DNA from: Acidobacteria bacterium bin61
Lineage (GTDB): Bacteria > Acidobacteriota > Vicinamibacteria > Marinacidobacterales > SMYC01
Reading direction: 5' to 3'
DNA length: 64,000 bases
Assembly (NCBI GenBank): GCA_963578475.1
Contig: CAUZCL010000003.1
Location: forward strand, 27,027-91,026
Below, piece after piece: positions 13,347 through 61,595 of the stretch. The position numbers and the translations under genes were made by a program. The stretch's first letter is position 1. Each line of letters starts with the position of its first letter. Under the pieces are notes generated by a model that was not told the origin of the DNA, searched no databases, and saw only the letters and a program-made list of their open reading frames with translations.

Positions 13347-14160
13347 TCAGTAGTGTAGGTTACTCCCCCAGTTAGTTCTAATTAGAGCCCAGAAGATCCG
13401 CTGGACGGAGACCGGATCGCCTATTAGCTGATAGAGAGACAGCATCGCGCGCGTGCCTCCGAGCAACGCATATTCCTGGAGCGACAGAACGATGGCATCA
13501 CCGAGGAGCATGTCTCTATGACCAAGAGAGGCTGAAAAGAATCGCTCGGCGAGCACGCCCGCTTGTCCATGCTTCGACAGACCCGTCGGCGACCAGACGG
13601 CAATGGCGCCTCCGCCGGCCTTTTGCACGAGCTCGGCAGCGAGGGGCGTGAATCCAGGAATCCCGAAACGACCGACCGAGCAGGTCATGAACGTCACGAT
13701 GGGACAGTTCTGATTCACGAGGTACTCGACGTCCGAAATCAGAAGCAGCGACTCATCCGCCAACCGGTCGAGCCCGCCATGCCAAAATAGTGCACGTGTC
13801 CCACGCCTTCATGCAGTGCGGTGAAGAGTTTTAGCCTCCCATCCGCGCCCGTGAGTTGCGAGAGATAGATGCGGTCGACATTGTAGTCGGGTGGGATGAA
13901 GCCAATTAGCCTTTCGGCATCTTGGGGAAAGTTGGACCGCGCGTCAGCGTTGTCCGCGAGCATCAAAACTCGGTTCGCCCACGGGCCCGTGCCGGCGCTC
14001 TCGTAGAGTCGAACCTTGTCGACATAATCGAGAAGCTCGTCATTGGAGAGCACCGGGATCCTCCCCAGTGCGATCTCCGGGACTCCATCATCGCCCACGA
14101 TATTCGCGAACGCGCTGTCGGCGGCGAAGAGCCCTTCCGGCGTTCCTCAGCGGTGTCACG
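13347..14160 (-). pseudogene. Peptidase C25 (gingipain)-like domain remnant, frameshifted and N-terminally truncated
   Basis: Two overlapping minus-strand ORFs (13739-14098 and 13347-13763) in different frames carry ...LHEGVGHVHYFG / ...CPIVTFMTCSVGRF... (His and Cys catalytic regions). A 1-nt deletion within TTTGGCATGGCGGG (expected ...GGCCATGGC...) separates them. An upstream in-frame TGA and no N-terminal domains. Confidence 0.45.
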
Positions 14161-14242
14161 ATACAGCTCTGTCCGCTACGAAGCGCCATAAACGAGAGCG
14201 CAAGCGCGGTGTTTTTACACGAGTGATCCAGCCGCTTTCCTG

Positions 14243-14746
14243 TTACTCGGTGGCTTGGCCGCCTAGGCGCGCCGAAACTTTAGCGAAGCGCTTGCCTCGC
14301 CGAAGCTTTAGCGAAGGCGGGCGCCACTCACCCGTAGCGACGAGCGTGAAAGAGGGAGGTGGCGGCGATGCGTGCACGTATATCTCGACTTCGAGCGAAA
14401 GCTCTTCCAAGTGCAGTGTCTCTCGCCAGTAGTCGTAAGGTGCTTCGAGATCGCCGAGCTCTTGAAGCTTGTCAGCGTCCACTTCGAAAAGCTCGACCCA
14501 AATTGGGTGGCGCTTCGACGACGCGACGAGCATCGGATATTCGCTGTTCTCGTACATCTCGAACGGAAGATCGACGAACCGACTGTGCACAGGCAAGGCA
14601 CCTTTCAGGTACAACTCGTGGTTGAAATAGCCGACCTTCAACGTGCCGTAAATGGCAACGAGGGTTAAAGGCCTGCCTGTTGCAACACGAAAAGAGCCTC
14701 GCGCATCATCAATAGCCGAGCGAATGCGTTTCGCGCCGCACGTCAC
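14243..14746 (-). CDS. Gamma-glutamylcyclotransferase-like (AIG2/GGCT fold) protein; start codon uncertain
   Basis: IYGTLKVGYFNHELYL matches the GGCT/AIG2 YGTL...N motif. The annotated ATG overlaps the upstream GGT gene by 37 nt, so the true start may be internal. Confidence 0.55.
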   Translation of the reverse strand: MTCGAKRIRSAIDDARGSFRVATGRPLTLVAIYGTLKVGYFNHELYLKGALPVHSRFVDLPFEMYENSEYPMLVASSKRHPIWVELFEVDADKLQELGDLEAPYDYWRETLHLEELSLEVEIYVHASPPPPSFTLVATGEWRPPSLKLRRGKRFAKVSARLGGQATE

Positions 14747-16559
14747 CGGCGGCTATCATCACGCCCGTTTCCGGATCCCGATAGGTGACCGTGAGCGCCC
14801 CCGTTCGCCAGTTCCAAAGTCCCCACGACTGCACGTCGTGACCTTTCACGCGCAGCGCCTGGAAAGTCGCCGTCGGGATGCGCGCCTCGACGCGTAGCAC
14901 GCCCGGGGTCGCGTTGACCTCGCTCCCGGTGCCGGGAAAGTTGTAGCTTCCGAAGCGCGGCTGGTCGACCGCATGCTCCGGCGACATGCCCCACACGCTG
15001 ACGTTCAAGAAAGTCTGAAGCATCGCCTGCACTTGCTGGTCGCCACCTGGCGTCGAGAGACCCATGAAGGGCTTCCCGTCTTTCATGACGAGGATCGGGT
15101 TGTTGGTGTTGCGCGGACGCTTCTTGGGTGTCATGACATTCGCAAGGCTCGCGTCGAGATTGAGCTGGCCCATCCGGCCGCCGAGACCGAATCCCCAGTT
15201 GGGGACGAGTGGCGTTAGCATGTGGCCGTCGCTCTCGGTCATGGAGAATACATTTCCTTCCGCATCCATCACGTTGACAGAAGTCGTGTCCGGAAGAGGG
15301 AGTCCCGCTTGCCCAGAGCCGAGCCCAGCAAAGACTTCGGGCGAGTCGGTAGCGACGTTTTCCATGTTCGCGGGATCGCCCCAGGGCGGCATGTCTTCGA
15401 AAGCCTTGTCGCGATCGACAAGCTCCGCGCGCTTGCGGCCATAAGCCTTCGTATAGAGCCCGCGCGGCACGTCCACGAAATCGGGGTCGCCGATATATTT
15501 GTGGCTGTCGGCCATCGCGAGCTCGATAACTTGCGAAAGTATGTGGATGTACTCAGCGGTGTTGTAGCCGAGCGCTTCGACGTCGAAGCTTTCGAGCATG
15601 TTCAAGATCAGGATGAGGCGAGGTCCTTGAGACCATCCATCACAAACATAGACGTCATAGCCGCGAAAGGTCGTATGGAGCGGCTCCATCCACCGACTCT
15701 CATAGCTCGCAAGATCGTCGTAGCGCACGAGACCGTCATCGAAGCCTTCATAGAGCGCCGCCGCCGCGCGGGCAGGCTCGCCTTTGTAGAACGCGTCCCT
15801 GGATGCGCGGATCGCCTCGGAGCGGGACGCACCCTTCTCGAGCGCTTTCACTTCGGCATCCATCATGTAGCGGATGAGCCGTCCCAGGTCTTTGTTGACC
15901 ATCAAGTCTCCGAGCTTCTGATTGCCGACGCCGTTCGGAAACCAAAACTCGACGTTGTAAGGAAACGGGGTAATCGCATCCTGCTGCGTATCGAGAAGTC
16001 CCTTCTGGTGCTTGTAGAGGTGGTAGCCCCCCTCGGCGATCTCGAGGGCGGGAGCCACAGCGTCGCGAAAGCTGAACGTTCCGTATCGATCGAGTGTAGA
16101 AAGCCACACGTCGACATCGGCAGGAATGAGGGCGATGCTCGTCGGCGTTTTTCCGTGCTCGAGGAAATGCGCGAGCGTTGCTTTCGCGGGTGTTTTCCCC
16201 GCCCCCACCCGGGTTATGACGCGCCCTTCAGAAGCGCTATAGAGGATCAGAGGCGCGACGCCAGTCCACCCGGCATAGCCCATCTTCATGACTTTCAAAG
16301 CCATCGCGGCCGTTACGCCGGCATCGAAGGCGTTGCCGCCTTTCTTGAAGGCCTCCATACCGGCGAGCGTCGACAGGTAGTGCCCGGTCGAGATGACTCC
16401 GCGCGTGCCCATGACGCGAGGGCGCATCGCCTCGAGGCTGTCATTGTCGTAGACGTGCCCGTAGGAGGCGAACGGGCCGAGCGTCTCGAGAAGCTTGCGC
16501 TCCTGCGAAGCGACCGTCGTCGCCAGAAGCACCATCCCCAATAGCCATAGACGTTTCAT
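14709..16559 (-). CDS. ggt: Gamma-glutamyltransferase (secreted)
   Basis: 616 aa; signal peptide MKRLWLLGMVLLATTVASQ. Catalytic Thr region (TGH...) and small-subunit GGDQQVQAMLQTFLNV motif. Confidence 0.88.
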   Translation of the reverse strand: MKRLWLLGMVLLATTVASQERKLLETLGPFASYGHVYDNDSLEAMRPRVMGTRGVISTGHYLSTLAGMEAFKKGGNAFDAGVTAAMALKVMKMGYAGWTGVAPLILYSASEGRVITRVGAGKTPAKATLAHFLEHGKTPTSIALIPADVDVWLSTLDRYGTFSFRDAVAPALEIAEGGYHLYKHQKGLLDTQQDAITPFPYNVEFWFPNGVGNQKLGDLMVNKDLGRLIRYMMDAEVKALEKGASRSEAIRASRDAFYKGEPARAAAALYEGFDDGLVRYDDLASYESRWMEPLHTTFRGYDVYVCDGWSQGPRLILILNMLESFDVEALGYNTAEYIHILSQVIELAMADSHKYIGDPDFVDVPRGLYTKAYGRKRAELVDRDKAFEDMPPWGDPANMENVATDSPEVFAGLGSGQAGLPLPDTTSVNVMDAEGNVFSMTESDGHMLTPLVPNWGFGLGGRMGQLNLDASLANVMTPKKRPRNTNNPILVMKDGKPFMGLSTPGGDQQVQAMLQTFLNVSVWGMSPEHAVDQPRFGSYNFPGTGSEVNATPGVLRVEARIPTATFQALRVKGHDVQSWGLWNWRTGALTVTYRDPETGVMIAAGDVRRETHSLGY

Positions 16560-16665
16560 TGCTGGCCCTCCCTACACCGAGACTTTTATCACATCTAGCC
16601 CTACCTTATTAATAAACACTCGGTGTCCTCCCCGACGTGGTATTTAATACCCCTAGGAGGTTGTC
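16560..16665. promoter_or_regulatory. Divergent promoter region with a strong Shine-Dalgarno (AGGAGG) 8 nt upstream of the aminotransferase ATG
   Basis: AT-rich stretch TTATTAATAAACA...TATTTAATAC in an otherwise GC-rich context. CCTAGGAGGTTGTCATG at 16652-16668. Confidence 0.4.
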
Positions 16666-17841
16666 ATGAAAGCCTGGCCACAGATGACGCTCGCGGGCGG
16701 CCCCGTGCAGCTCACCGATCGCACCCTTCGAGATCAATCCCGTCCTGTGCTGTATCACTACGATCCCGCCTTCATCGAAATATTCGGCCACACGTGTGAC
16801 CTGTTGAAGCAGGTCTACCGAACAGAGTATGACGTCGTGATCATGCAGGGCGAGGCCATCCTCGGGCTAGAGGCCGCGGCCGCGTGCTTGTTGTCGCCGG
16901 GCGACAAAGTGCTCAACCTCGTCTCGGGTGTTTTCGGAAAGTGGTTCGAGCTGTTCATCGAAAAATATGGCGGTGAGGCGATCGAGCTTGCCGTGCCGTA
17001 TAACGAAGCGATCAACCCCGATGCCGTCCGCAAAGCGCTAGAGGACAACCCCGGCATCAAGTTCCTATCGGTCGTACACTCGGAGACACCGTCGGCAACG
17101 CTCAACCCTGTCGAGGCTATCGGCGCGGTCGCGAAAGAGTTCGGCGTTCTCACGATGGTCGACACCGTGTCGGGATTGGGCGGAGAGCTCCTGAGCCCCG
17201 AGGATTGGGGGATGGACGTTGCCGTCGCCGGGCCGCAGAAATGTCTCGGAGGGCCCCCGGGGCTTTCCATGCTGTCGGTTAGCCCTCGAGCTTGGGAAGT
17301 AATGGAGTCCAAGAAGACCCCGCTTCGCGGAAGCTTTCTCTCTATTCTCGACTGGCGCGATACGTGGATGGAGAAACAAATATTTCCCTATACGCCATCG
17401 GTCACGAACATCTACGCGCTGGAATCGGTTCTCGAGCAAGCGCTCGAGGAAGGGATGGAGGCCATGGCGGTGCGCCATAGAGCGATCGCGAAAGCCGCTC
17501 GCCTGGCTGTTTCAGCGATGGGGCTCGAGCTTTGGGCGGCGAGCGAAGAGATCGCCGCGTCCTGTGTTACGGGTGCGGTAATGCCGAAAGGCATCGACGA
17601 CCAACAACTTCGAGGACGCTTGCGCGATCGCTACGGCGTCATGATCTCTGGCGGCTATGGCGAGCTCGCCGGAAAGCTCTTCCGACTCGGCCACATGGGT
17701 ATGGCCGCTCAGCCGACCTATCTCTGCGCACAGCTCGCGATGGTCGAGCGCACTCTCGCGGACCTTGGTGTGCCGGTCACTCTCGGCCAGGGTGTTGGCG
17801 CGGCACTCGCCTCGCTCGAGAACTGGGGAGAGAGCGCATGA
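16666..17841 (+). CDS. Class-V (AGXT-family) PLP-dependent aminotransferase, serine-pyruvate/alanine-glyoxylate type
   Basis: 391 aa; typical fold-type I class V pattern (VHSETPSATLNP...FGVLTMVDTVSGLGG, SGPQKCLGGPPGLS). Confidence 0.85.
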   Translation: MKAWPQMTLAGGPVQLTDRTLRDQSRPVLYHYDPAFIEIFGHTCDLLKQVYRTEYDVVIMQGEAILGLEAAAACLLSPGDKVLNLVSGVFGKWFELFIEKYGGEAIELAVPYNEAINPDAVRKALEDNPGIKFLSVVHSETPSATLNPVEAIGAVAKEFGVLTMVDTVSGLGGELLSPEDWGMDVAVAGPQKCLGGPPGLSMLSVSPRAWEVMESKKTPLRGSFLSILDWRDTWMEKQIFPYTPSVTNIYALESVLEQALEEGMEAMAVRHRAIAKAARLAVSAMGLELWAASEEIAASCVTGAVMPKGIDDQQLRGRLRDRYGVMISGGYGELAGKLFRLGHMGMAAQPTYLCAQLAMVERTLADLGVPVTLGQGVGAALASLENWGESA

Positions 17842-18245
17842 AGGCTCCCGTCCTGGCAACGCTCTTCCTTTTGGCCGCTGCGCATACGCAAGCCCGCGTC
17901 GTTCGCCTGGAGATCACCCAGCGCGAGACCGTGCTCTCCGGCCGGCCTTTCGGGCTCGCCGGCGCCTACGAGAATCTTTCAGGAACGGCACATTTCGCGC
18001 TCGACCCTGAGGTTCCACAAAACCGCGGCATCATCGATTTGTCGCTCGCGCCGCGAAACGCACGCGGCGAGGTTTTGTTCTCCGCGGATTTTTTTCTTTT
18101 GAAACCTGTCGACGCGGCACGCGCTAACGGAGTGCTCTTTTACGAAGCCGACAACCGCGGACGCAAGCGTATCCTCGCAACGTTTCAGAAAGGAAGCAGG
18201 TCCGCCAACCCGACGACCCCTGAAGATTTCGGCTCGGGCCACTGA
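17838..18245 (+). pseudogene. 5' fragment of a secreted protein gene (signal peptide plus about 110 aa), truncated by the convergent neighbour
   Basis: ATG overlaps the aminotransferase stop (ATGA). MKAPVLATLFLLAAAHTQA signal peptide. ORF stops 60 nt inside the convergent truncated oxygenase ORF. Confidence 0.35.
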
Positions 18246-18625
18246 TTCGGTCCCTGTAACGGACGCTCCGCGAGCAGGTCCGGGTGTTCGGGCGGAAGCT
18301 CGTGCATCATCACGAGACACTCGCTCAAGTTCGGCGCGAGCTCTTCGTTAAGCCAGTAACTAGAGGCGCCAATATAGCCGCGGTGAAAGGCGTTGATGGA
18401 GAGCGCGTTCTTTCTGTCCAGAGGCTCGGCGTGAAAGCGCACCGACTGCGCGAAAACGTGCCGGAGAAGCTCCGTCGGAACGCCGTGATTCGTGAGATAG
18501 AAAAAGCCGACCTGCTCGCAGGCCACGTTCAGAGCTCGGGCGACGTCCTCCGGGTCGCGGGACATGTCGAGGATCGGCAGCCGGTCTTTCGGAATCTCGA
18601 TGGCCGAACGTGTCATCGACCGCAT
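18185..18625 (-). pseudogene. 2OG-Fe(II) oxygenase N-terminal (DIOX_N) fragment; catalytic C-terminal domain missing
   Basis: IPILDMS...ACEQVGFFYLTNHGVP...LQGPNQWPE is the canonical non-haem dioxygenase N-terminal region, ending just before where the HxD...H jelly-roll domain should start. No continuation in any frame. Confidence 0.45.
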
Positions 18626-18655
18626 CTCAGCATTGCGTGTGGTACGCTCCGCGCC

Positions 18656-19909: not shown

Positions 19910-20727
19910 TTGTCAAAGACGTCAACGCCTTGCGTCTCTACATTCTTGCCGGAACCGGAGGCGACCTTCGTGCCAACGCCGCGTCGACGACGTTCCAGTT
20001 CGCGGCATTCATTGACGACGAGGAGGACGGCGAGAACATTGGCGGCTTCACCGCACAGTGGACCCTGCCGCTCAAAAGCGGAGAACGCGTCTACGTCGCG
20101 ACCGTCCGCCATGACGAGTCCCGTCCGCCTTTCGCGTCGGCAGTTCGTGCAGCGAGCGCTCGCTGTTACCGCCGCGTTTCCTGCTTGAAGAGCCTCAGCC
20201 GTTCCGTGGAAGCTGCCGGTGCCACAAATCCGATCGTGCTGGACCGCTACGGTCCGCTTGTGCCAGATCCGCATCGAATCCTCGACTTGCCCGGAGGCTT
20301 TGGCTATCGCGTGATCTCCCGCACCGGTGACCGCATGGCCGATGGGTTGCTCGTGCCAGGTTTCCCCGACGGTATGGCCGCGTTCTCGGGGAGTGACGGC
20401 AAGGTGGCGCACGACGAGGCGCGTATGAAGCGCTTCGAACGTGAAGCTCATGTGCTCGCCTCGCTCAATCATCCGAACATCGTAGCGATCTACGGACTCG
20501 AGGACGTGGACGGGGTTCGCGCACTCGTGCTCGAGCTGGTGGAAGGGCCGACGCTCGCGGAGCGGATCGCTTTAGGTCCAATGACGGCTGAAGAAGTCGT
20601 ACGTATCGCCCGACAGATGGCGGTCGGGCTCGAGGCGGCGCACGAGAAGTCTGTGATTCATCGGGATCTGAAGCCGGCTTGCCATCACTCCAGATGGCTC
20701 TCGCATCGTATATGCGGCGACCGTTAG
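19910..20727 (+). pseudogene. Chimeric remnant: PhoX-like Tat-signal N-terminus (frameshifted) joined to an internal Hanks-type Ser/Thr kinase core fragment
   Basis: Frame 19910 gives MTSPVRLSRRQFVQRALAVTAAF (Tat motif, PhoX-like). Frame 19930 continues IVLDRYGPLVPDPHRILDLPGGFGYRVISRTGDRMADGLLVPGFPDGMAAF (PhoX/DUF839-like), then abruptly EARMKRFEREAHVLASLNHPNIVAIYG...HRDLKP (kinase subdomains II-VIb) and stops. No kinase N-lobe Gly-loop and no activation segment. Confidence 0.45.
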
Positions 20728-21001: not shown

Positions 21002-22227
21002 ATGAAAAAACCCCCGAACCTAGTTTCAGCCTGTATTTTGCTTCTCGCGCCAGCGGCACTTGCAGAAGAATCGATCCACGATATCAAAGTGGACCACTCG
21101 ATTATCTCCGCAGAGCTCGCGAACACCGCGGTACTGCTTCGCGAACGCGCGCTCATCGACAATCTCTCAGTCGACATCCTGGAATCGCTGGCCACGGAGG
21201 TCGGACCCCGCCGCATGGGCACCGACGGCGACCGGCGTGCCATCGCTTGGGCGCAGGCCAAGTTCAAGGATCTCGGTTTCGACCGCGTCTGGATAGAAAA
21301 TGACTACGTTCCGAAGCCCGGCGCCTCACGCATGGCCGCCTACGGTGAGGGAACGAAAGCGCGCGGCCGCAGACATGTCACTGCCGTGAAGCGTGGTGCC
21401 GAGGCGATTGTCATTCGCTCGGTCGGCACGGACAACCATCGCTACGCGCATACCGGCAGCGGCAACGGGTATGTCGACGGCGTGAGGAAGATACCGGCCG
21501 CCGCGTTGTCGTCTCCTGACGCCGTTCTTCTTCAGAACATGCTGAAGCGCGGCAAACCAGTGACGATGAAAATGAATCTGACATCCGAGATTACCGGTCC
21601 GACGAAAGGCGCGAATATCATTGGCGCGATCACCGGCCGACAGGATCCCGGCCACTATCTCGTGCTGGGCGCCCACGTGGGTTCCTGGGACGAAGGCACC
21701 GGTGCGCTGGATGACGGGGCGGGCGTGGCCTTGATGATGGCCGCGACCGCGTTCATCGGCCAGATGGAGCAACGGCCGAAGCGCAGTATTCGCGTGCTGC
21801 TTTTCGCTGGCGAGGAGATCGTCTTTTACGGCGTGAACGCGTACATGGAAAGACACAAGAACGAGCTCCACGAGCATCTACTGGGCGCGGAAGTCGATAG
21901 CGGCGGTGGCCGCATCCACACGCTGATTTCGGGCGTGGGCGAGCAGTCGCTGCCGGTTGTTCGCGAGATGTATAAACTCATAGCACCTTTAGTATCGCGT
22001 GGAGCGATGCTAACAACTCGAAAGGCTCATCGGACATGAGTGTGCTCGGACGAGCCGGCATGCCGGCTCTCAGTTTCATGCAGAGCTCGAACGACTATAT
22101 GAAGTATCACCACACACCCAACGACACGTTCGACAAAATCGTTCCGGAAGACATGCGCTATCTGACCGCCGGCTACGCGACGATGTTCTACCTGGCCTCC
22201 GAAATGGAAATCGACTTCAGGAAATAA
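21002..22227 (+). pseudogene. M28-family zinc aminopeptidase (secreted) with a frameshift near 21975-21995
   Basis: ORF 21002-22039 has a signal peptide and the M28 core (HVGSWDEGTGALDDGAGVA, LFAGEE). The conserved C-terminal ...GSSDMSVLGRAGMPALSF...YHHTPNDTFDKI lies in a different frame (the 22036-22227 ORF is its tail). Confidence 0.6.
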
Positions 22228-23364: not shown

Positions 23365-24975
23365 CTAGTTCGAGGCTCCGATGGGCGCGACGCAGCTGAA
23401 GCTCGCGGCGTCATGCGCGCTACCCACGCCGTCGTAGCGCGCGACATTGGGATACGGACACAAAGGTCGCGATAACGTCACCGCTCCGTTCTCCTCGCGC
23501 ACGGCGACGAATGTGTCCGGCGCGACGCCGGCTTCGACCCCGTCGACGAGCGCGGTGAGCGCATCGAAGCGATCGACGCGAGCCCACTGGCACAATGGAA
23601 CATGCCGGGAACCATGACAAGGCGAAAGAAATCGTGTGGTCTCGCTCCCATCGTGTCGCCGACCTCTTCGTAATACGCCACGGTGCGAAGTGGGTTGAGC
23701 GCTGTGTCCGCCCAACCGAAATAGCTGATGAGCTTGCCGCCTCGCTCTTTGAAACGGGTGTGGTCCGGGTCGACCGCATGAGAATCTCTCGGATGGCTCC
23801 CATGCGCTCCGGCTCCTTTTCGAAATCGAACGCATTCCAATCGTCTTCTGGATCGTCCCCGGGAAACGCCATGTAACGGAAAAACGATTTCGCGAACAGC
23901 TTCTGGATCGAAGGGCTGCGCGAGCTCAATATCCAGCCGCCCCCACCACTGCTCGAACCGCGACGCGTCACACCGACCGACTCGGCCCCGAAAGGTTGTC
24001 CCGGGTAAAACTGCCCAGCGCCTCGACGCACGCCAACGTAGATGAGGCGGAGCGCTTCGACGTCGTCCTCGCTAAAACAGGTGGGGCCATTCTCATTCCC
24101 GCTGCAACAAGGAAACTCGGTCGCGGGGTCAAACGCGCAGGCGCGAGGGTCAGCGATGAGGCCGTCCTCGAGACCGTCGACGCCGTCGCATTTCGCGGTT
24201 ACGGACTTGGCAACGAGCTCGATCTTTTGAGGTCTCGCGTCGAGCTCTCTAGAGCCCTGCCGTTCCATGCATAAGAAATCATCGTGTTCGTGAAGTCCAG
24301 AACGGGCGCTCCCGCGACGATGCCGTCGAAATCTTCGTAAAAGCGCTGCGCCGATATCAACCCCTGGCGCCTGCCGGTCGAGCAGCCGTCCCAGCAGGAA
24401 TACCGAGGACCGCGCCCGTAGTAAACGTCAATGAGCTCCTTGGCGCTCAGGACGGTCAAGTGTACGGCGCGAAACGCATAGTCGATCGTCTTCTGCAAAT
24501 TGCCGTGAGCAAAGGTCGCTAGCGGCTCTGACCGACTGTCATGGTCGGTGTCGGTATAGGCCGTCGCAAAAGCATGCTGCAGCGCGCGGTCGCGGACGAG
24601 CTGGCGCCCTTCATTTTCGGGCGGCGTTCCGGCGAAGCCGCCATTCCCGTTCATGTAGAATCGCCCATTCCACACGGAGGGGAAGTTCAGCTCGAAGCGG
24701 ACCTCCGGAGGAATGACGCCCGAGACGCGACAGTGCTCTGGGACGTCGTTGTCGGCAGCGACGAGCCGTGCAGAAAGAATGGAGTAGTCGTGCGTCGTGC
24801 GAGACAGGAGTGCTTCGTAGCCCGCCGAGGCGAAATAGGAAACGTCCGCGTAACCCACGCGTGAGCTCGGAGCGTCGAGAAAACTGTAACCATTCTGCGC
24901 CCACATCGGGACTGCCGTCGTCAGAGCGACCAGGGCTACGAATTGGATCAAGCGGGAGCTGGACTGGATGGACAT
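23365..24975 (-). pseudogene. Tannase/feruloyl-esterase family alpha/beta hydrolase, disrupted by at least 3 frameshifts
   Basis: Four minus-strand ORF pieces in three frames carry consecutive parts of the family: signal peptide and YSCWDGCSTGRRQGL (24199-24975), CDGVDGLEDGLIADPRAC (23420-24268), KLISYFGWADTALNP...FFRLVMVPGMFHCASG (23478-23840), and C-terminal LCPYPNVARYDGVG...SFSC (23365-23835). Confidence 0.6.
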
Positions 24976-25991: not shown

Positions 25992-26079
25992 GCTCTGAAG
26001 ACTGCCCCAATGGCGCGGCCCCGAACGTACTGGAGTCGCTAGCTGGGTCTCCTGGCCCCCGTCCTGGCCCGAGGCGCTC

Positions 26080-41566: not shown

Positions 41567-41569
41567 GTC

Positions 41570-43852: not shown

Positions 43853-43863
43853 GGAGCTTCGCA

Positions 43864-45839: not shown

Positions 45840-45880
45840 CGCGCTAGAATCGGAATGAGCTCCAAGAGAAAACGGTCGAG

Positions 45881-46826
<946 letters not shown>

Positions 46827-51303: not shown

Positions 51304-51329
51304 AGCTACTGGCCCTTCGCCGGAGCTGT

Positions 51330-51430
51330 CCCCAGCGCATGGCGCGTGCCCTCACTGGGATGGGCGCTGCAAGCGGTCGAGTCGATGGTAGCACTCGCGC
51401 AAGCCCATGGCCTTACGGGTTATCACCTTG
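51330..51430 (-). pseudogene. Relic duplicate of the 3' end of an S9 peptidase gene
   Basis: About 85% nucleotide identity to 52025-52110 (the last about 30 codons of the intact S9 peptidase at 52003-54069). Encodes ...ECYHRLDRLQR... versus REYYHRLDRLKRQFEW. No upstream gene body. Confidence 0.35.
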
Positions 51431-51773
51431 TTCTGCGGACGGCGCGCCGGCGAGGTTCAATCAGGTGAAGACTAGCGGTTCGATTACCCAGAATCAGCTT
51501 TCATCCGTGCCGCCTTTCGTCTTCTACTAGCAATCTTCGGTGGATAAAATCTGACCCGTAGACACGCTCCGCCTGCAGTAAATTGTGTTGCGGGCATAAA
51601 AATTGAAGCAATCGCTCATCGTTTCTGCGATAGATGGCGAACGGCGCCCCGTGGTCGATGTGCAGTCCGGCCCGCGCAGTACACCTCGTCCCTCCATCGC
51701 GCACGACGCGCGCCCCCCAATTCCGCACAGTGACACGCTTGTAACATCCCCGTCGAATCGATAGATTATCTCG

Positions 51774-52001
51774 ATGCCCCTCACCTCGAGAACGCGCCTC
51801 GGCCCATATGAGATCGTCTCGCTAGTCGGCCAAGCTTTGGTCGAGGCCGAAAAGGATTCCGCCACGGAAAGTCTCGAGATCAAGCTGAAACTACGGGCTG
51901 AGAATCCGAAACAGTTCCTGATCGACATTCGATTCGGACCTATTCATCTTCAGAGCTCTTGGGTCACGGCTGACTTGCAACCGATGGATACCAATAATTA
52001 A
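51774..52001 (+). pseudogene. Possible relic of a Ser/Thr kinase N-terminus
   Basis: 75-aa ORF beginning MPLTSRTRLGPYEIVSLVGQ, the typical first beta-strand preceding a kinase Gly-loop. The Gly-loop itself and the rest are missing. Confidence 0.2.
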
Positions 52002-52002
52002 C

Positions 52003-54069
52003 CTACTCGTTCGTCGCCGCTGAGGTCGCGAGCGCATGACGCGTCACCCACTCGAATTGGCGCTTCAAGCGGTCGAGCCGGTGGTAGTACTCGCGCAAGC
52101 CATGGCCTTCGCGCGGGTAGAAGACGAGCTCCACGGCAACGCCGCGATCCTTGAGCGCGCGGTAAAACTCCATCGGCTGGCCAATGGGTACGCGCTGGTC
52201 GTTTCCGCCGTGAAGGATCAATGTCGGGGTCGTGACGTTATCGGCGAAGGTCAGCCCGGACCGGTCGCGATAGAGCTGCTCCGTCTCGGGGGACAACGTT
52301 CCGTTGAAGAACGTCCCGAGATAGCTCGGGACGTCGTTGGTGCCGTACATGCTGACGAGATTCGTGAGACCGGCACCGATCATCGCGGCTTTGAAACGCG
52401 TCGTCTGCGACACTGTCCAGCACGTCATGTAGCCGCCATAGCTCCAGCCTTGGAAGGCGAGCTTATCGGGATCAGCGGTCCCCATCTCGATCACCGCATC
52501 GACCCCGGCCATGATGTCGCGGTAGTCTCCTCCGCCCCAATCCGCAAGGTTCCCCCGCATGAACGTCTCACCGTAATTGGTGCTCCCGCGCGGATTAGGA
52601 TAGAGCACCGCCCATCCTTGACCGGCCCAGTGTTGGCCGCCGTCGCCATAGCGCACACGGTAATAATCGTGATGCGCGCCGGTGGGGCCGCCATGCGCAA
52701 CAGTCATGAGCGGATAACGCTCGCCTTGAACGTAGCCGACCGGCTTCACGAGCACACCTTCGACCTCGAAGCCCTCGGTGCTCTTCCACCGGATGACTTC
52801 CGTCTTGCCAAGCTCGAGCTTTCGGGTTTCGGGGTGGACATCGCTCAGCTTCGCCGGCGCGGAAAAATCGAGCCCCGAGACGTAGACGTCGGCTGGCGCC
52901 TCGGCGGATTCGAGCGTGAAGGCCACCCGCGAGCCGTCGGCGCTCACGGAGCCCAAGCCGAGGATTCGTTTGTGGGTGAGCTTGTCGTAGCGCTCCGACG
53001 CAACGTTGTAAGCGAAGACCTCACGATAAACGCTGTCGCCTGCGGTGAACAGGATCCTTCGGCTGTCCGGCGTCCACCGGGGATTCGAGGGAATCCGATC
53101 GAACCCCGTCGAGACGTCCCGCAAGCTGCCTTTCTGCACGTCATAGATCGTCAAATGGGCGTTTATCATTGGTTGGATGAGTGTGCCGTCCGGAAGCGGC
53201 TCGCTGGCATTCGGGATCGACAGGAACGCAATCGCCTTGCCGTCTGGTGACCATGCGGGGGAACGGTCCGCGCCAGGATTCTCGGTAATCTTTTGGGCAG
53301 CGCCTCCGACCGATTGAACATAAATGTCGTCGCGGCTGTCTCGAAGCCAAAGGGTGGGAGCGCCGGTAAAAGCAATCCGGGTCCCGTCGGGAGACCAGCT
53401 TGGGCGGCCTTTGACGGTGAAATCGGCAGCTTCGGTTTGAATCACCGCCTCTTTGGATGAGACATCGATGACCCAGAGCCTGTTGAAGCGCGCGTCGTCC
53501 TCATAGACGAGCGGATCGTCGCGACGGTTTTTTTTCTCGTCGTCCTCGGAGAGAGCCTCCTTCACCGTAAAAGCAATCTTTGAGCTGTCCGGGGACCAGA
53601 CATAATCGAGGACGCCTTCTTTTGCTTCCGTGAGCGACATCGCTTCACCGCCGGCGGTGCGCATCAGCCAGACCTGCCACTTGGGCTCGTCGTCCTTAAT
53701 CTTCGTCTTAGACTTGGTCTTGCCGCTTCCGCGCGCGGCTAGAAAGCTCATCCACTTGCCATCCGGCGACCACCGCGGCCCGCTCTCGCCCTTTTCACCA
53801 AAAGTCAGCTGCGTCGCCTCGCCGGCATCGGTCGCGACACGCCAGAGATGCGAGACAAAGGTCTTCGTACCTTCTTTGTCACCTTCTTCCCAGGCCGACA
53901 CGGTGTAGAGAACCGAGCTAGCGTCGGGAGAAATCTGTGGCGAGCCCACGCTCTTCATCGACAAAATGTCTTCGAACTCGACAGGACGCTTGTCCTGCGC
54001 AAGACCGAAGGAGGCGACGCTAAGAGCGCCCGAAACGAGAGCCACGAGAACAACGTGTCGATATTTCAT
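52003..54069 (-). CDS. S9-family serine peptidase with N-terminal TolB-like beta-propeller (secreted)
   Basis: ATG at 54069 (MKYRHVVLVALVSGALSVASFGLA). Repeated SPDG propeller motifs. Catalytic GWSYGG and C-terminal His/Asp region. Confidence 0.85.
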   Translation of the reverse strand: MKYRHVVLVALVSGALSVASFGLAQDKRPVEFEDILSMKSVGSPQISPDASSVLYTVSAWEEGDKEGTKTFVSHLWRVATDAGEATQLTFGEKGESGPRWSPDGKWMSFLAARGSGKTKSKTKIKDDEPKWQVWLMRTAGGEAMSLTEAKEGVLDYVWSPDSSKIAFTVKEALSEDDEKKNRRDDPLVYEDDARFNRLWVIDVSSKEAVIQTEAADFTVKGRPSWSPDGTRIAFTGAPTLWLRDSRDDIYVQSVGGAAQKITENPGADRSPAWSPDGKAIAFLSIPNASEPLPDGTLIQPMINAHLTIYDVQKGSLRDVSTGFDRIPSNPRWTPDSRRILFTAGDSVYREVFAYNVASERYDKLTHKRILGLGSVSADGSRVAFTLESAEAPADVYVSGLDFSAPAKLSDVHPETRKLELGKTEVIRWKSTEGFEVEGVLVKPVGYVQGERYPLMTVAHGGPTGAHHDYYRVRYGDGGQHWAGQGWAVLYPNPRGSTNYGETFMRGNLADWGGGDYRDIMAGVDAVIEMGTADPDKLAFQGWSYGGYMTCWTVSQTTRFKAAMIGAGLTNLVSMYGTNDVPSYLGTFFNGTLSPETEQLYRDRSGLTFADNVTTPTLILHGGNDQRVPIGQPMEFYRALKDRGVAVELVFYPREGHGLREYYHRLDRLKRQFEWVTRHALATSAATNE

Positions 54070-55674: not shown

Positions 55675-56922
55675 ATGGCCGGGCGGGCGGTGGTCGTGGG
55701 TGGCGGCGGGATCGGAGTCGCTTCAGCCTACTATCTGACCCGCTCCGGCTGGCACGTTACGCTCGTCGACAAGGGCGGGATCGGCCGCGGTTGCTCATAC
55801 GGCAACGCTGGCCTCATCGTCCCGAGCCACTCGGATCCCATCCCCGGCCCTGGCGTCATCGGCCAGGCGCTCCGCTTCATGATGAAGAAGGACAGCCCGT
55901 TCTACGCGCGCCCCAGGCTCGATGCGGGCCTCCTGCGTTTCTTCTGGCAGTTCCGCCGCTACTGTAATGCTGCAAAAGCCCGGCACGGTTTTGGCGCGCT
56001 CTTGAGCCTCAGCGCCGGAAGCCTCGAGCTGTACGAGGAGCTGCGGCGCGATGGCGATGCCGATTTCTTTTTCGAGCGACGCGGTGCCCTCGAAGTCGCT
56101 CTCACCAAGGATAGCCTCGAACACTTCCGAAATGCACGAGACGCGCTGGAAGCGGAAGGCTTCACCACGAAGCTCCTGTCCCGAGACGAGGCGCTCGCGC
56201 TCGAGCCCGCGCTTTCGACGAACGTTCGAGGCGGGCTCTTCATCGAGGGTGAAGCGCACGGCTCGAGCTTCGGCTATATCACTTCGCTCACCGCGACACT
56301 CGAAAAGCGGGGCGCCCGCATTCTTGCGGATCACGCGGTCTCGCGGCTCGTGCACGATAGCGCCCAGCACATGAAAGGAGTCGAGCTCGAGGGCGGCAAA
56401 ATGCTGGAGGCCGATCTCATCGTGCTCGCGGCGGGCGCCTGGTCCAGGACACTCGCAAAACCCCTCGGCGTCGACATTCCAATGCAGCCGGCCAAAGGTT
56501 ATAGCTGCACCATCGACACCTTCGAAGGCGCGCCGAGCTACCCGATTCTCGTGAAGGAGCGCCGCGTCATCGTCACGCCTCTCGATTCCCGATTGCGCTT
56601 CGCCGGCACGCTGGAGCTAACAGGCTTCGACGAGACCATTCACGGCCCGCGCTACGAGGCGGTAAAGAGGGTCGGATGCGAGATTTTGAAAACCCGACCG
56701 CCTATGGAGAACGAAGAACCTTGGAGCGGCTTACGGCCCGTGACTCCGGACGGCCTTCCTATCGTCGACTGGGCGAAGCCTTATCGAGGTCTTCTCCTGG
56801 CCACGGGACACGCGATGCTCGGGTTCACACAATCTCCGATGACGGGGAAGCTCGTCGCGGAGCTCGCGAACGGTGACGATCCGTCCATCTCTCTCGAGCC
56901 TTTCCGCCTGGACCGCTTTTGA
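55675..56922 (+). CDS. FAD-dependent oxidoreductase, D-amino-acid dehydrogenase (DadA)-like
   Basis: VVVGGGGIGVASAYYL dinucleotide-binding motif. DAO-family C-terminal GHAMLGFTQSPMTGKLVAEL. Confidence 0.75.
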   Translation: MAGRAVVVGGGGIGVASAYYLTRSGWHVTLVDKGGIGRGCSYGNAGLIVPSHSDPIPGPGVIGQALRFMMKKDSPFYARPRLDAGLLRFFWQFRRYCNAAKARHGFGALLSLSAGSLELYEELRRDGDADFFFERRGALEVALTKDSLEHFRNARDALEAEGFTTKLLSRDEALALEPALSTNVRGGLFIEGEAHGSSFGYITSLTATLEKRGARILADHAVSRLVHDSAQHMKGVELEGGKMLEADLIVLAAGAWSRTLAKPLGVDIPMQPAKGYSCTIDTFEGAPSYPILVKERRVIVTPLDSRLRFAGTLELTGFDETIHGPRYEAVKRVGCEILKTRPPMENEEPWSGLRPVTPDGLPIVDWAKPYRGLLLATGHAMLGFTQSPMTGKLVAELANGDDPSISLEPFRLDRF

Positions 56923-58090
56923 CCTTATTGCTCTTCTGTCTTGCGCTTTCACAATCGATCGAGCACGTCCGGGTCGAAGGCAACTTACGCTTGACGGGCG
57001 ACGCCATTCGCCGTCACGCCGCGATCGCGACCGAGGAAGAGCTTGCGGAAGCGTTTCAACGTTTGTGGGCGACAGGTCTGTTCGAAGATGTCCGCTTCGA
57101 CCGCGAAGACAGTGTCCTCGTCATCCACGTCGAAGAAAAGACGCTGCTCGCCGCGTACCGGCTCGAGGGCGAGAAGCTCGAGGAAGAAGAGCTGCTCGAA
57201 GGCCTGCGAAGAGCAGGGTTCGATTTGCACACGAACCGCGCGTTCGGTCGAGACGATGCCCGCACCGTGGAGCGTCTGACCCAGCAGTTTCTGGGCGAGG
57301 AGGTAGACGTGCGTGCTCGCGTGGAGCTCGTCCTGACAGTAGAGAAAGTTCCCATCCAGCGGCTTTCGACCTTGGAGCTCGACGGAAACGAAGCCCTCAC
57401 GGACGCTGAGCTTCGCGACGTGATGCACCTGAAGCCGCGGGACTGGACGACGCGCGTCACGGGCCGCGACAAGCTCTCACAATGAGTGCTCGAAGCGGAC
57501 CTCGAAAGCCTCCGCAAGCTGTATCGCTCACGCGGCGATCGCGATATCCGGGTGGGTCCTGTCGATCTCGATGAAGCGCTGCGCATCCCGATCGCCGAAG
57601 GCCGCCGCTATCGCCTCGATACCATCACGATCGAGCCAGGCTCGCTTCTAAGCCAGGACGACGCGAATAAATAACTCCCGCGCCCCGGCGGCATCTATGA
57701 CGCGAGCGTGATCGATGCCGTGACGGCACGCGTCGAACGTCACTACCAGTCCCTCGGCTCTCCGGGTGTGCGCGTCGTGCGGGAAGAAAAGGCCGTCGCG
57801 GGCGCTCACACGACTCTAGACCATCGCCCGCGTCGTGCCCGAGATCGACTACACCGCACAGCCGGGACGTGTGGACATCACCTACCACATCGAAGAGGTA
57901 GACCCGTTCGAATACTTGATCGGCGGCGGCGTGAACGGAGTTCAAAGCGGAACGGGAAACGGCCAATTCATCGCCAAGAGCCTCCTAGGCCGAGGCGACA
58001 TGTTGCGCTTCAATCTGGACTTCGGCGACCGCTTCCAGAATTTCGCGGTCAGCTATCGCGATCCGTCGACACTCGGCCATCGCCTCCCCC
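56919..58090 (+). pseudogene. bamA: Outer-membrane protein assembly factor BamA: POTRA region plus the first barrel strands only, with 2-3 frameshifts; beta-barrel truncated
   Basis: 56919-57485 encodes POTRA-like repeats (IEHVRVEGNLRLTGDAIRR...). It continues in other frames (57486-57674, 57708-, 57835-58329: YHIEEVDPFEYLIGGGVNGVQSGTGNGQFIAKSLLGRGDMLRFNLDFGDR is the start of the Omp85 barrel). Coding signal ends about 58090, where a convergent kinase pseudogene begins. Confidence 0.5.
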
Positions 58091-59044
58091 GAGGCCACAT
58101 CGTCCCTAACCTTCTCGAGATGATTACGAAGATCAATAGCCGACTGATACCAGCGCTCTTGATCTTTCGCAAGGCACCGCCTATCAACAATCCGCCCAAG
58201 CTCCCTCGGAATCGAAGGAACAACATCCCCAAGCATCCGCAGCGTATCCCTAATAACCGAAGACAAAAGCGCCCCCGTCGTATCCCCGACAAATGGCCGC
58301 CGCCCCGACAACATCTCGTTAAAAAATAATCCCGAGCGAAACAAATATCCGACCGCGCGTCAACCGTCTTCCCTTCCGCCTGCTCCGGAGACATATAAGC
58401 AAGCGTCCCAACAATAGCCCCTTCCCGAGTCTTCGCCTCCGTCGGAACCTCGCTGCCGACATCCACAAACCCCGACACCGGCTTAGCCAGCCAGAAATCA
58501 ACACTTTGATCCGCCCGTCATCGCCGAGCATCACGTTATCCGGCTTCAAATTCCGATGCGTAATATCCGCCCTATGCGCCGCCGCCACCGCATCCGCAAG
58601 CGGGATGGCGATCTCGAAGAACTTGCTTAGAGGCATTCCGTGTCGGGAGAGAAGCTCTGTGAGGGTTTTGCCGCGCACGAGCTCCATGACGATGAAGTGG
58701 ATGCCGTCGGCTTCTTCGACCGAAAACACCTGCACGATGTTCGGATGGTTCAAAGCCGCCACCGACTTCGCTTCCCTCTCGAACCGCTCCCGCCGCTCAG
58801 GTGACGCCATCTCCGGCGGCAGCACCTTCAAAGCAACTTTCCGCCCGAGCTTCGTATCCTCCGCAGCAAAAACTTCCCCCATACCACCGCTTCCAAGCTT
58901 CTCGACGATACGATAGTGATTGAGAGTCTGGCCAATTATCGTAGGCCCGAGATTATCATACGGAAAGGGCCTTCCAACAAGACTAGACGTGAGCGCGCAG
59001 AGTCGATAAAGTTCGGCGTTCATGTCCAAATTCCGACAGTTCAT
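57985..59044 (-). pseudogene. Hanks-type Ser/Thr protein kinase with at least 2 frameshifts
   Basis: 58319-59044 carries the Gly-loop (GSGGMGEVF), AxK (VALKVL) and HRNLKPDNVML. 58053-58478 carries GTLAYMSPEQ. 57985-58344 carries the C-lobe (MLSGRRPF...). All on the minus strand, in three frames. Confidence 0.6.
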
Positions 59045-59516
59045 CTACCTGGCCATCGGCACCTCCTTCGGCCTCGGCCTCTCCCCCATCGCTCCCGGCA
59101 GCTTCGGCGCGCTCGTCGGCGTCGCCTACCACGTCGCCATCGTCCTCTGGCTTCCCGCCTCCTGGCACCTCCCACTGCTCGTTATCGGCCTGGCACTCGT
59201 AGCGCTGGCGAACCACTTGCTGACCCCCTGGGCCGTCGAGTACTGGAAGAACGAAGACCCGGGGAACTTTGTCCTCGACGAAGTAGCCGGCTATCTAGTC
59301 GTCCCCATCCTCTTCCGCGGAGGCGAGCTCTGGCAGGTCGCCCTTGTCGGCTTTCTCCTCTTCCGTATTTTCGACATCATCAAGATCCCTCCCGCCAAGC
59401 AGATCGACCGCGACATGCACGGCTCCTGGGGGATCATCCTCGACGACATCGTCAGCGGCGCTTACGCGGCGCTGGTGCTCTATGGGCTCGTCTGGGCCGG
59501 CGTGATGGCCCCCTGA
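59022..59516 (+). CDS. pgpA: Phosphatidylglycerophosphatase A
   Basis: 164 aa; PgpA family motifs (GLGLSPIAPGSFGAL, VLDEVAGY, FRIFDIIKIPPAKQ, DDIVSGAYA). Confidence 0.75.
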   Translation: MSKFRQFIYLAIGTSFGLGLSPIAPGSFGALVGVAYHVAIVLWLPASWHLPLLVIGLALVALANHLLTPWAVEYWKNEDPGNFVLDEVAGYLVVPILFRGGELWQVALVGFLLFRIFDIIKIPPAKQIDRDMHGSWGIILDDIVSGAYAALVLYGLVWAGVMAP

Positions 59517-59639
59517 CCTGACTCCAGCCGGTGGCAGTCCGCGACCCAGTTGCTAAACTAAGGCCATAGTTCTCGAACCATCCAGTAAAACTTCCTGAAA
59601 TTCCAAGGCCGCTCTTTCTTAGGGGCGACGGGTCTATAG

Positions 59640-61595
59640 CAACAGACGCAATCACGTTCCGACAGCGCTGGCGCTATCGCATCGACAGCTTCCTCGCGCG
59701 AGGCAGCGATCCGCTCTTTCTGTCCCTCATCGTCGCTTTCTTCGGCTCGATCGCCGTGATCGGCGCCATGCGATGGCTGTTCCATCAATATGCCCCCGAC
59801 ACAAAGCACAACTTCGCCGACCAGCTTTGGGTCATCTTTCTCCAGCTCACCGACCCCGGAACATGGTCCAGGACAACGACACGCCGACGATTTTCAAGAC
59901 CGCGGCCGTCGTCGCCAACATCACGGGCGTCGTCATCTTCTCCGCTTTCATCAGCTTTCGCACCACCGCGCTCGACCAGGCGATCGCGCATCTCAAGAAA
60001 GGCCATAGCCAAGTTCTCGAGTCGGGTCACTCCTTGATCCTCGGCTGGAGCCCGCGCGTGGTCGAGATCCTCCGTGAGCTCGTCGAGGCGAACGAGAGCG
60101 AATCCAATCCGGTCGTCGTCATCCTCGCGGAAAAAGACAAAGAGGAGATAGACGAGTATCTCCGGAGCCACTTCACCGACCGGAGGAACACGCGCATCGT
60201 TACGCGCAGCGGGGCCCCGGCCTCTGTCCAAGCGCTCGACCGCGTTAGCGCCAGCGAGGCGAAGTCCGCCATCGTGCTCGCCCACTGCAACCCAGCCGCG
60301 AGTCTCGAGATCAAGCTCTCGAGCGACGCCAAAGTGGTCAAGACCGTCCCCACCGTCGAGTCGCGACTCGAGGAAGGCGCGGAATTTTAGATTGTCGCGG
60401 AGATTTTCACCGACCGAAACCGGCAAATGGTCAAGGACATCGCTCCCGAAATGGTGTCGGTCATCGACGCCGAGAAAATCCTCGCGAAGATCATGGTGCA
60501 AACGTCTCGTACCAGCGGCCTCTCCGTCGTTTATTCGGAGCTACTGAGCTTTGAAGGCTGCGAGATGTATTTCCACAACAACCCGGCATGGGCCGGTCTT
60601 CGCTTCGACCGTCTATAATTTCACTTTCCCGACGGCGTACCCATCGGCATTCGAGCTCCGGATGGCGAGATAGAAATCCGGCCTGCGCCCGACCGGCAGA
60701 TGATGACAGAGGAGGAGATCCTCATCGTCGCCGAAGACGACTCGACTATCTAGTTTCTGCCGCAGCCTGTCATGACCCCGAGCACAGGAGCGATTCCCGA
60801 CAAGCGCATTCGCTTGAAGTTCAAGCGCCAGCTCATTCTCGGATGGAGCTACAAAGCACCTATCATCATCCAAGGATATGCCGATTACGTTCTCGATGGC
60901 TCGCAAATCGACGTCATGGTCAAAGATCCACCGCCGCAACTGATGGAGACCATCCGGAAGCTCGACGCGGAGAGCACCGCGACGGTCCGTCTCATCGACA
61001 AAGATCCTCTCATCTGCGACGAGCTCGGGTCGACGTCCCCGTTTCTTTACAACAACGTCATCATCCTCCCCCAGAAACCTTCCATGAACAGTGGGCCTGA
61101 GCGGATCGACTCGGAGGCGATCGGCGTGCTGCTGCATCTGCGGAAACTGCAAAAGGTACTCACGGAGGCAGGCAAGACCGTCGAAACGAAGCTCATCACC
61201 GAAGTACTCGAGTCCCTCAATCAAGAGCTCGTCTCCCATGCGGGCGTCAACGATTTCATCATCTCGGACCGGATGGTGTCTATGATCTTCGCCCAGATCA
61301 GCGAGGAGAAAGACATGCAGCGTGTCTATGACAACCTCTTCCAAGAAGAAGGCTCCGAGATCTACGTCAAGCCCGCTTGGCTCTATTTCGAGAACCTTCC
61401 GATCACTGCCGTTTCGGCGACTTGATGCAAGTAGCACAAAAAAGAGACGGGGAGATTTGTCTCGGATACAAACTCAGTGCCCTCGAAAGCGATGGCGACG
61501 CAAACTATGGTGTTAAACTCATACCTCTCAAGGATTCGGAGATTACGCTCACGGAACAAGACAGCCTCGTCGTCGTCGCGGAAGACGATCGTTAG
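59640..61595 (+). pseudogene. CASTOR/POLLUX (DMI1)-like ion channel with tandem RCK-type domains, disrupted by at least 4 frame changes
   Basis: Pore/filter-like FADQLWVIFLQLTDPG then (frameshift) NM.QDNDT. LILGWSPRVVEILRELVEANE... (first RCK/CASTOR domain, 59773-60390). MVKDIAPEMVSVIDAEKILAKIMVQ... (60427-60618). KRQLILGWSYKAPIIIQGYADYV... second domain (60772-61425). C-terminal tail 61377-61595. Confidence 0.5.

Follow-up and report, generated by a model that had tools for sequence, protein, structure and literature searches.

The systems described so far that come closest to the one reported here are reductive evolution of the Mycobacterium leprae type, reportedly set out by Cole and colleagues in 2001, the recent pseudogene bursts of Sodalis glossinidius, Serratia symbiotica, Shigella and Yersinia pestis, and the low coding density of 'Nostoc azollae' and Trichodesmium. 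To our knowledge such decay has been little described in Acidobacteriota, and our literature search for pseudogenes in Vicinamibacteria gave nothing usable. Here we analyse a stretch of 64,000 nucleotides (nt) from Acidobacteria bacterium bin61 (GCA_963578475.1, contig CAUZCL010000003.1), which is referred to as the window and whose positions are used as coordinates throughout. Interrupted, truncated and deleted genes are interleaved in it with long intact ones. This region has most probably undergone lineage-specific gene decay under relaxed selection, which is an ordinary, known kind of pseudogene decay seen unusually early and densely.

The GC content of the window is 0.57-0.64 throughout. 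In a self-trained codon-usage scan, many adjoining same-strand coding segments change frame or are split by in-frame stops, and long uninterrupted open reading frames (ORFs) stand beside such frame-switching segments. With ilvBNC, glnS, pgpA and tctCBA the window appears to be an ordinary stretch of chromosome, in which the core genes ilvBNC, glnS and pgpA are interspersed with dead ones. A tRNA scan and an Rfam scan of the window gave no matches, and no transposase was seen in the gene calls or Pfam matches covering it. An earlier note on this DNA had counted at least 17 lesioned loci. With Pfam profile coordinates read on individual frame segments, 16 of these 17 have split or truncated domains, but the so-called S9 relic is only a 112-nt duplicate; the note's lesion counts were too low for the GT4 glycosyltransferase (three found), the CASTOR-like channel (five) and the NPP/phosphodiesterase (at least four). 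Casualties beyond its list are an Abhydrolase_10 stub, a 254-aa hypothetical gene (hyp254), a probable 5' frameshift in a PQQ/BamB-like gene, a GMC oxidoreductase and 11 whole genes that have been deleted.

Frameshifts and stops of this kind could in principle be created by sequencing, polishing or assembly error, or by a chimeric contig. Same-species records were found by exact-protein look-up: ENA ERZ27247690 (a 118-kb MEGAHIT contig), JGI 3300031801 (two contigs) and the Logan assemblies of SRR9039920, SRR9039929, SRR9039963 and SRR22804948. Together they comprise 11 loci from at least six short-read assemblies, at least four sequencing runs and three assemblers; the ENA or Logan assemblies may partly re-use the same runs, so that the independence of some is uncertain, with at least four runs still represented. 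All 11 loci align to positions 4709-64000 at 99.95-100% identity with zero gaps (positions 1-4708 are covered by the bin61 assembly only). They differ among themselves at nine single-nucleotide polymorphism (SNP) positions, none of which falls on any lesion. Five of about 17 small indels do lie in homopolymer runs of at least three bases, as miscalls might. However, at every lesion the short-read assemblies (at least four runs, three assemblers) have the same bases, with no gap in 59 kb. Nonsense substitutions and cleanly joined deletions of kb size make up many of the lesions, net frameshifts are absent from intact genes, and the contig is collinear with a sister species. As identical 1-nt indels recur in several short-read assemblies from three assemblers, random consensus or polishing error is excluded, and error of any of these kinds is an explanation to which we give practically no credence. 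The lesions are thus confirmed as present in the organism, identical in at least six assemblies, just as the note had held when it set consensus error aside, and they are fixed in all sampled populations. Diversity in these populations is low, with 0-3 SNPs per 6-22 kb among the 11 loci, the number of truly independent samples being uncertain.

A search with the TPP-enzyme fragment returned graded relatives, with homologs at 72-73% identity named Vicinamibacteria, and protein cluster look-ups led to relatives at 93.7-99% amino-acid identity. Among the matches listed for a glnS scan of GTDB genomes, all were at or below 70% identity and without synteny; NCBI metagenome-assembled genomes (MAGs) with glnS at 90% identity or more exist, and the absence of close GTDB relatives is therefore not to be inferred. 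The most informative relative is a sister species at about 92-94% nt identity, represented by GCA_004356105.1 (an NCBI MAG named 'Acidobacteria bacterium'), ENA ERZ27251149, JGI 3300009030 and JGI 3300024431. Its loci (L095, L099, L101 and L103) have a gene structure that is reproduced in second assemblies (L096, L100, L102 and L104), and they are collinear with the window at about 90-95% nt identity over 9.7-18.7, 25.2-48.0 and 54.1-63.9 kb. Intact syntenic orthologs exist there for 13 lesioned loci; the comparison with close relatives that the note had proposed thus yields, at about 93% nt identity, the undamaged genes. The TPP and Omp85 genes are intact as well in a more distant species, GCA_964491595.1 (L092), at about 88.5% nt identity. 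The stretch from 19.8 to 25.2 kb (PhoX/kinase, M28 and tannase) is assessed from Pfam evidence; for a sister reference there, a metagenome scan with the aldo-keto reductase gave only paralogs at no more than 79% identity.

The sister comparison also gives a census. The collinear regions hold 52 sister genes, of which 24 are intact in the window, 15 disrupted, 11 deleted and two doubtful, so that 26 of 52 are lost or broken. What takes up about 62.5 kb in the sister takes up about 41.6 kb in the window, which has only about 0.8 kb of extra sequence; about one third of the collinear DNA is gone, a net loss by deletion such as reductive decay entails. All but one of the lesions that have a reference are younger than the split from the sister (median dS, the synonymous divergence, about 0.19), and sister-specific damage is rare, with a single case. 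That case is the AHSA1-like gene at 62798-63466 on the reverse strand, in which the sister is without about 410-436 nt at positions 62763-63171 and has 169 aa as compared with the window's 222 aa. Since this deletion occurs only in the sister, decay is not strictly one-sided. These comparisons show that the lesions are derived and lineage-specific. They also qualify two of the note's descriptions: its 'old' pseudogenes do carry multiple hits per gene, but nearly all lesions with a reference post-date the sister split; and deletions are indeed present in what it called a possible zone of repeated rearrangement, but gene order is collinear with the sister and there is no shuffling.

The lesions are not scattered evenly. 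The 26 small lesions sit in 12 of 39 genes, as compared with 18.2 genes expected if spread by length (P = 4e-4), and the joint probability that six genes of at least 1.65 kb are all clean is 1e-3. This bears out the note's contention that such clustering beside clean genes of 2-3 kb is not uniform and random. Three intact genes served as controls:

14709-16559, reverse strand: gamma-glutamyltransferase (GGT), intact, no indel relative to the sister, omega 0.08
31657-33357, forward strand: glnS, intact, no indel relative to the sister, omega 0.15
37417-39489, reverse strand: S9 peptidase, intact at 690 aa, no indel relative to the sister, omega 0.06

In genes that both species keep intact there is no net frameshift, the indels being multiples of three or locally compensated pairs, and omega (non-synonymous over synonymous rate) is 0.04-0.39, mostly 0.23 or less. 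The 886-aa 'S9' ORF of the note is in fact the 690-aa S9 gene listed above plus read-through of a dead NPP tail. The window itself carries two GGTs and two S9 peptidases, and the public gene call of the second GGT begins later than the 574-aa start. Two adjoining conserved hypotheticals (365 and 355 aa, positions 42755-44931) without a Pfam match are intact in the window, the sister and L093; lying between dead genes, they are evidently under selection.

Substitutions polarised with outgroups reveal a difference between the two branches. The window has 530 lineage-unique substitutions and the sister 384 (P = 1.5e-6), a rate about 1.4 times as fast. In intact genes the ratio of non-synonymous to synonymous changes is 86/201 (0.43) in the window and 43/166 (0.26) in the sister (Fisher P = 0.022); in the dead Omp85 gene the counts are 18/15 and 3/9, respectively. 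Surviving genes therefore evolve faster and under weaker purifying selection, as expected of decay. A raised mutation rate (through a lost repair gene or a hypermutator sweep), which would be compatible with relaxed selection, might also have driven the burst of lesions. Synonymous changes are indeed about 1.2 times as numerous on the window branch (201 vs 166), and several indels lie in homopolymers, but the non-synonymous excess is larger (2.0 times), the mutational spectrum equals the sister's, and the lesions are limited to a subset of genes beside clean long neighbours, so that selection would be needed anyway. A mutation-rate change as the driver is accordingly very improbable. Taken together, the identical lesions, the intact sister orthologs and the faster window branch rich in non-synonymous changes uphold the note's view of pseudogenes gathering hits under relaxed selection.

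In the first half of the window the lesioned loci are as follows; the first one lies outside the range of the note:

7970-8842, reverse strand: GMC oxidoreductase remnant, Rossmann start and GMC_oxred_C only
13347-14147, reverse strand: C25 peptidase remnant, 778 nt left at the 3' end of a 5754-nt gene
17838-18239, forward strand: Abhydrolase_10 5' stub, 134 of 662 codons, ending at the junction of a 7.9-kb deletion (tblastn and blastn against L095)
18232-18625, reverse strand: 2OG-Fe(II) oxygenase 5' stub, 131 of 334 codons, Pfam DIOX_N only
19930-20727, forward strand: PhoX/kinase chimeric ORF, in which an N-terminal part of PhoX runs into a mid-kinase part
21002-22227, forward strand: M28 peptidase pseudogene, one frameshift within the catalytic domain (Pfam M28 1-96 and 136-183 in different frames)
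23365-24975, reverse strand: tannase/feruloyl esterase pseudogene, three frame changes (frame order 1, 0, 2, 1)
25167-25991, forward strand: 3' part of agcS (alanine/glycine:cation symporter), 5' 579 nt missing
25988-27150, forward strand: PQQ beta-propeller gene (BamB-like), probable lesion, a 1-nt deletion at 26004 (codon 6)
29234-29740, reverse strand: hyp254 remnant (254-aa hypothetical gene), 5' deletion of about 300 nt and TAG at 29362
30498-31116, forward strand: PAS-HisKA-HATPase-REC hybrid kinase remnant

The GMC remnant retains Pfam NAD_binding_8 1-28 and GMC_oxred_C 1-138 in a 290-aa frame, and about 960 nt of internal sequence of the relative L098 are missing at 8397-8399. A gluconate-2-dehydrogenase subunit 3 gene adjoins it, with its domain at full length. 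A 5.1-kb deletion took the rest of the C25 gene, and the remaining part has 1-nt deletions at 13783 and 13411; Pfam C25 matches (102-245 and 238-371) lie in two frames with the N-terminus gone, and the sister ortholog of 1917 aa is intact in two assemblies. The 2OG oxygenase lost its 3' part in the 7.9-kb deletion, the sister protein of 334 aa having both DIOX_N and 2OG-FeII_Oxy. In the PhoX/kinase chimera a single frame holds PhoX 2-74 of 515 at aa 121-196 and Pkinase 39-127 of 263 at aa 178-265. The tannase domain is spread over four stop-to-stop segments (Pfam Tannase 11-169, 179-314, 352-426 and 427-490).

The agcS fragment matches Na_Ala_symp 141-385 of 392 and its alignment starts at sister query position 580; the sister ortholog (465 aa) passes TIGR00835. 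The PQQ/BamB-like ORF restarts at a GTG at 26080 and has 356 aa, as compared with 386-390 aa in all relatives. In the hybrid kinase remnant a 1.29-kb internal deletion at 30888 took the kinase core, and at least one frameshift lies near the 3' end; only PAS_4 and REC 42-82 are recognised by Pfam, the tblastn pieces are q3-130, q558-599 and q596-634, and the sister ortholog of 635 aa has all domains. Between this remnant and glnS lie 416 nt (31128-31544) that the sister does not have and that occur once within the window.

The lesioned loci of the second half are:

35179-36182, reverse strand: FHA-PatA_N pseudogene, TGA at 36035, +2 at 35998 and +1 at 35815; sister 333 aa, intact
36303-37420, reverse strand: DAO oxidase (MSOX/N-methyltryptophan-oxidase-like) pseudogene, 1-nt deletion at 37097
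39540-40966, reverse strand: NPP/phosphodiesterase-SnoaL pseudogene, -1 at 40427, -1 at 40105 and -2 at 39737
41568-42630, reverse strand: GT4 glycosyltransferase pseudogene, TAG at 42414, +1 at 41824 (C6 to C7) and -1 at 41723 (A7 to A6)
45836-46800, reverse strand: pfkA pseudogene, +2 at 46721 (codon 29), ancestral ATG lost, GAG to TAG at codon 309 of 323
47762-49425, forward strand: TPP-dependent (acetolactate-synthase-like) pseudogene inside tctCBA, 1-nt deletion at 48668 and TAT to TAG at 48946
51303-52003, no strand assigned: 700-nt extra segment relative to L092, between tctA and the second S9 gene (S9b)
56919-58086, forward strand: BamA-family (POTRA and Omp85) pseudogene, TGA at 57483, TAA at 57672, deletions of 24 nt and 164 nt
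58320-58939, reverse strand: Ser/Thr kinase fragment, Pkinase 1-139 only, with an extra 1-nt deletion at 58501 in the window
59636-61595, forward strand: CASTOR/POLLUX-like RCK channel pseudogene, five lesions

PatA_N is the current Pfam name of the domain that the note called DUF4388. The FAD-dependent amino-acid (DAO) oxidase has its Pfam DAO match split into 2-101 and 112-352, with an NCBIfam match as well (sister, 373 aa). In the NPP-SnoaL gene (Phosphodiest 1-127 and 139-241; sister, 591 aa) about 330-385 nt are deleted at the 3' end, and the tail is read through into the S9 ORF. The GT4 gene (sister, 355 aa) has GT1 pieces 16-107 and 108-135.

The pfkA gene would normally be central. Its conserved GGDAPGMN motif is out of frame after the +2 insertion, and the Pfam PFK match is limited to 25-277 of 277; with the N-terminal GGDxPG motif not in frame and the start codon lost, the window copy does not qualify as PfkA (TIGR02482), whereas the sister ortholog of 323 aa scores 393 bits against a cut-off of 371. 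In the TPP enzyme, TPP_N and TPP_M are separated from TPP_C; the gene is intact in L092 (518 aa) and the sister (554 aa), and the outgroups L092, L093 and L094 are without its 1-nt deletion. In the neighbouring tctB a +1/-1 indel pair 8 nt apart (49526-49534) relative to L092 changes three codons and preserves the ORF. The 700-nt segment begins at its left edge with the 112-nt (18-aa) copy of the S9b 3' end (52000-52109, 79% identical) and contains a 93-aa relic (51534-51797, reverse strand) of a 351-aa protein that is intact in L093.

The barrel-encoding 3' end of the Omp85 gene was lost in a 4.9-kb deletion together with four downstream genes, and Pfam recognises POTRA only. The sister (722 aa) and L092 (721 aa) have intact orthologs; that of the sister reaches 317 bits for TIGR03303 against a cut-off of 297, a member by a small margin, and at the stop-codon sites the outgroups L092 and L093 carry the sister state. 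As the window copy has POTRA only, carries stops and has lost its barrel, it does not qualify as BamA (TIGR03303), and the locus at 56919-58086 is a BamA-family pseudogene. The Ser/Thr kinase was already truncated in the sister (206 aa), this damage being common to both species. The CASTOR-like gene has -1 at 59858, TAG at 60388, TAA at 60616, TAG at 60751 and -1 at 61407; Pfam finds Castor and RCK fragments, and the 653-aa sister gene is intact in two assemblies.

Since many of these interruptions are in-frame stops and frameshifts, one may ask if the genes still work, through stop-codon reassignment, programmed frameshifting or split-gene expression. Nothing specific speaks for this, apart from some fragments that persist as ORFs with good codon usage. 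Against it, TAG, TAA and TGA all occur among the in-frame stops, and each of them also terminates intact genes; catalytic parts are physically gone (the Omp85 barrel, HisKA/HATPase, 2OG-FeII_Oxy and 5 kb of C25); and the lesion positions have no motif in common. The mixture of stops excludes recoding, and we consider it scarcely conceivable that the interrupted genes function in any of these ways. Eukaryotic introns do not account for the lesions either: genes and operons such as tctCBA and ilvBNC are bacterial, the sister ORFs are uninterrupted, and the lesions are 1-2-nt indels or stops.

Nine large deletions were found in the window, ranging from 0.16 to 7.9 kb (7.9, 5.1, 4.9, 1.29, 1.1, 0.4, 0.33, 0.3 and 0.16 kb), the four largest of which are:

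7.9 kb, junction 18232-18239: leaves the 5' stubs of the 2OG oxygenase and Abhydrolase_10 genes, five whole genes gone
5.1 kb: took most of the C25 gene
4.9 kb, junction 58083-58086: the Omp85 3' end and four genes
1.29 kb: removed the kinase core from the PAS-HK-REC gene

Microhomology of 2-12 nt is seen at six junctions, and filler bases or a local duplication at the other three; none of the nine carries an insertion sequence (IS) element.

These results suggest a course of events in which: purifying selection on many genes would have been relaxed in the window lineage; disabling nonsense changes and 1-2-nt indels, some in homopolymers, would then have become fixed; the dead genes would have gathered further hits neutrally; deletions of 0.16-7.9 kb would have removed dead genes and their neighbours, shrinking the collinear regions by about one third; and genes still needed would have been kept by purifying selection, leaving flawless ORFs of 2-3 kb beside wrecks. 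The cause of a relaxation across the lineage may have been a smaller effective population size, a narrower niche, a bottleneck or host restriction. That some genes have nevertheless been dead for a while is shown by the several hits that they carry and by stop codons that took two mutations (TGG to TAA, CAG to TAA).

Several observations weigh against decay of this kind, or against its extent. The pairwise omega of most dead genes is 0.11-0.24 (0.29-0.61 for the stubs and the hybrid kinase remnant), barely above that of intact genes; either these genes were inactivated recently or the sister branch dilutes the signal. Density is uneven, with one clear pseudogene in the first 13 kb. The window is free of IS elements, its mutational spectrum has not shifted relative to the sister's (GC-to-AT share 54% vs 52%), and its GC shows no AT shift, unlike in classic early-stage symbionts. 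The clade is evidently not small-genomed, and its genomes appear unusually large for Acidobacteriota: relatives' contigs of 8.7 and 10.4 Mb carry proteins 93.7-95% identical to the window GGT at 14709-16559. As to genome-wide decay, the evidence covers 64 kb of the genome.

Alternatively, decay could be local, confined to a dispensable stretch of a normal genome of about 9-10 Mb in which redundant paralogs (a second pfkA or bamA, further GGTs and S9 peptidases) make these copies expendable. Genomes as large as those of the relatives carry many paralogs, the window has its own pairs of GGTs and S9 peptidases, its first 13 kb are much cleaner, and the PFK, TPP and Omp85 genes also look degraded independently in L093, which suggests that these copies are dispensable across the clade. 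However, core genes (ilvBNC, glnS and pgpA) are interspersed with the dead ones, the lesions extend over 8-62 kb and over three separate sister contigs, and intact genes change faster and more non-synonymously on the window branch, which points to a lineage-wide rather than a regional effect. With its interspersed core genes and its collinearity with the sister, the region is not an obvious island. We therefore regard purely local decay as rather unlikely and relaxed selection across the lineage as the better account.

Observations on the long-read relatives L093, L097 and L098 (contig names 8x, 23x and 29x) should be read with care. They have many short ORFs, which were left out of the pseudogene count because low-coverage long-read indel errors are possible. 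L093 (a 261-kb long-read contig, 8x) has its own deletions in PFK, TPP and Omp85, reflecting either parallel decay or long-read error, and in the syntenic region at its positions 2400-8800 and 10001-17600 it carries Transposase_mut, a Y1_Tnp fragment and CopG antitoxins. The 90%-identity clusters of the second GGT, the S9 peptidase, the HEAT protein and the nucleoside hydrolase include many far shorter members on relatives' Mb-sized contigs, which hints at clade-wide fragmentation or at long-read indel errors.

If lineage-specific decay under relaxed selection is accepted for the region, the rest of the genome may look like the window. A bolder reading, which we offer tentatively and toward which we lean less than away, is that an Acidobacteriota lineage whose ancestor had about 9-10 Mb has just entered genome-wide reductive evolution, with a third to half of its genes dead or deleted within about 7% divergence, through point lesions and short deletions without an IS burst, in a nearly clonal population. 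Were this true, the pattern could reflect a lifestyle that has recently become host-associated or otherwise bottlenecked. The species and its intact sister would then form a natural pair for the earliest genome reduction outside the proteobacterial and actinobacterial models, and the pair could show which central functions go first (pfkA, the BamA paralog, transporters and sensor kinases). Such a genome would receive wrong scores from annotation pipelines and completeness estimators. In either case, a pseudogene-dense metagenomic contig has been validated without reads, by means of independent assemblies and a closely related sister species, and it provides a dated, base-level catalogue of gene death in a natural population, with nonsense changes and 1-2-nt indels first and short deletions after.

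With respect to known systems, the window resembles Mycobacterium leprae in its multiply lesioned pseudogenes with intact syntenic orthologs in a close relative, its clean essential genes, its deletional erosion and its near-clonality. It differs in that another phylum is concerned, 64 kb were examined, the intact relative is much less diverged (about 7% nt) and GC is not lowered. As in Sodalis glossinidius, Serratia symbiotica, Shigella and Yersinia pestis, there is a recent burst of nonsense and small-indel pseudogenes, with faster protein evolution and low diversity; however, those bacteria show IS expansion and IS-mediated rearrangement, whereas the window has none in 64 kb, is collinear with its sister and has microhomology or filler at its deletion junctions. 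Like 'Nostoc azollae' and Trichodesmium, it comes from an environmental bacterium in a clade of large genomes, and decaying genes lower its coding density. Those are cyanobacteria with many transposases, and neither a symbiosis nor a colony lifestyle is in evidence here.

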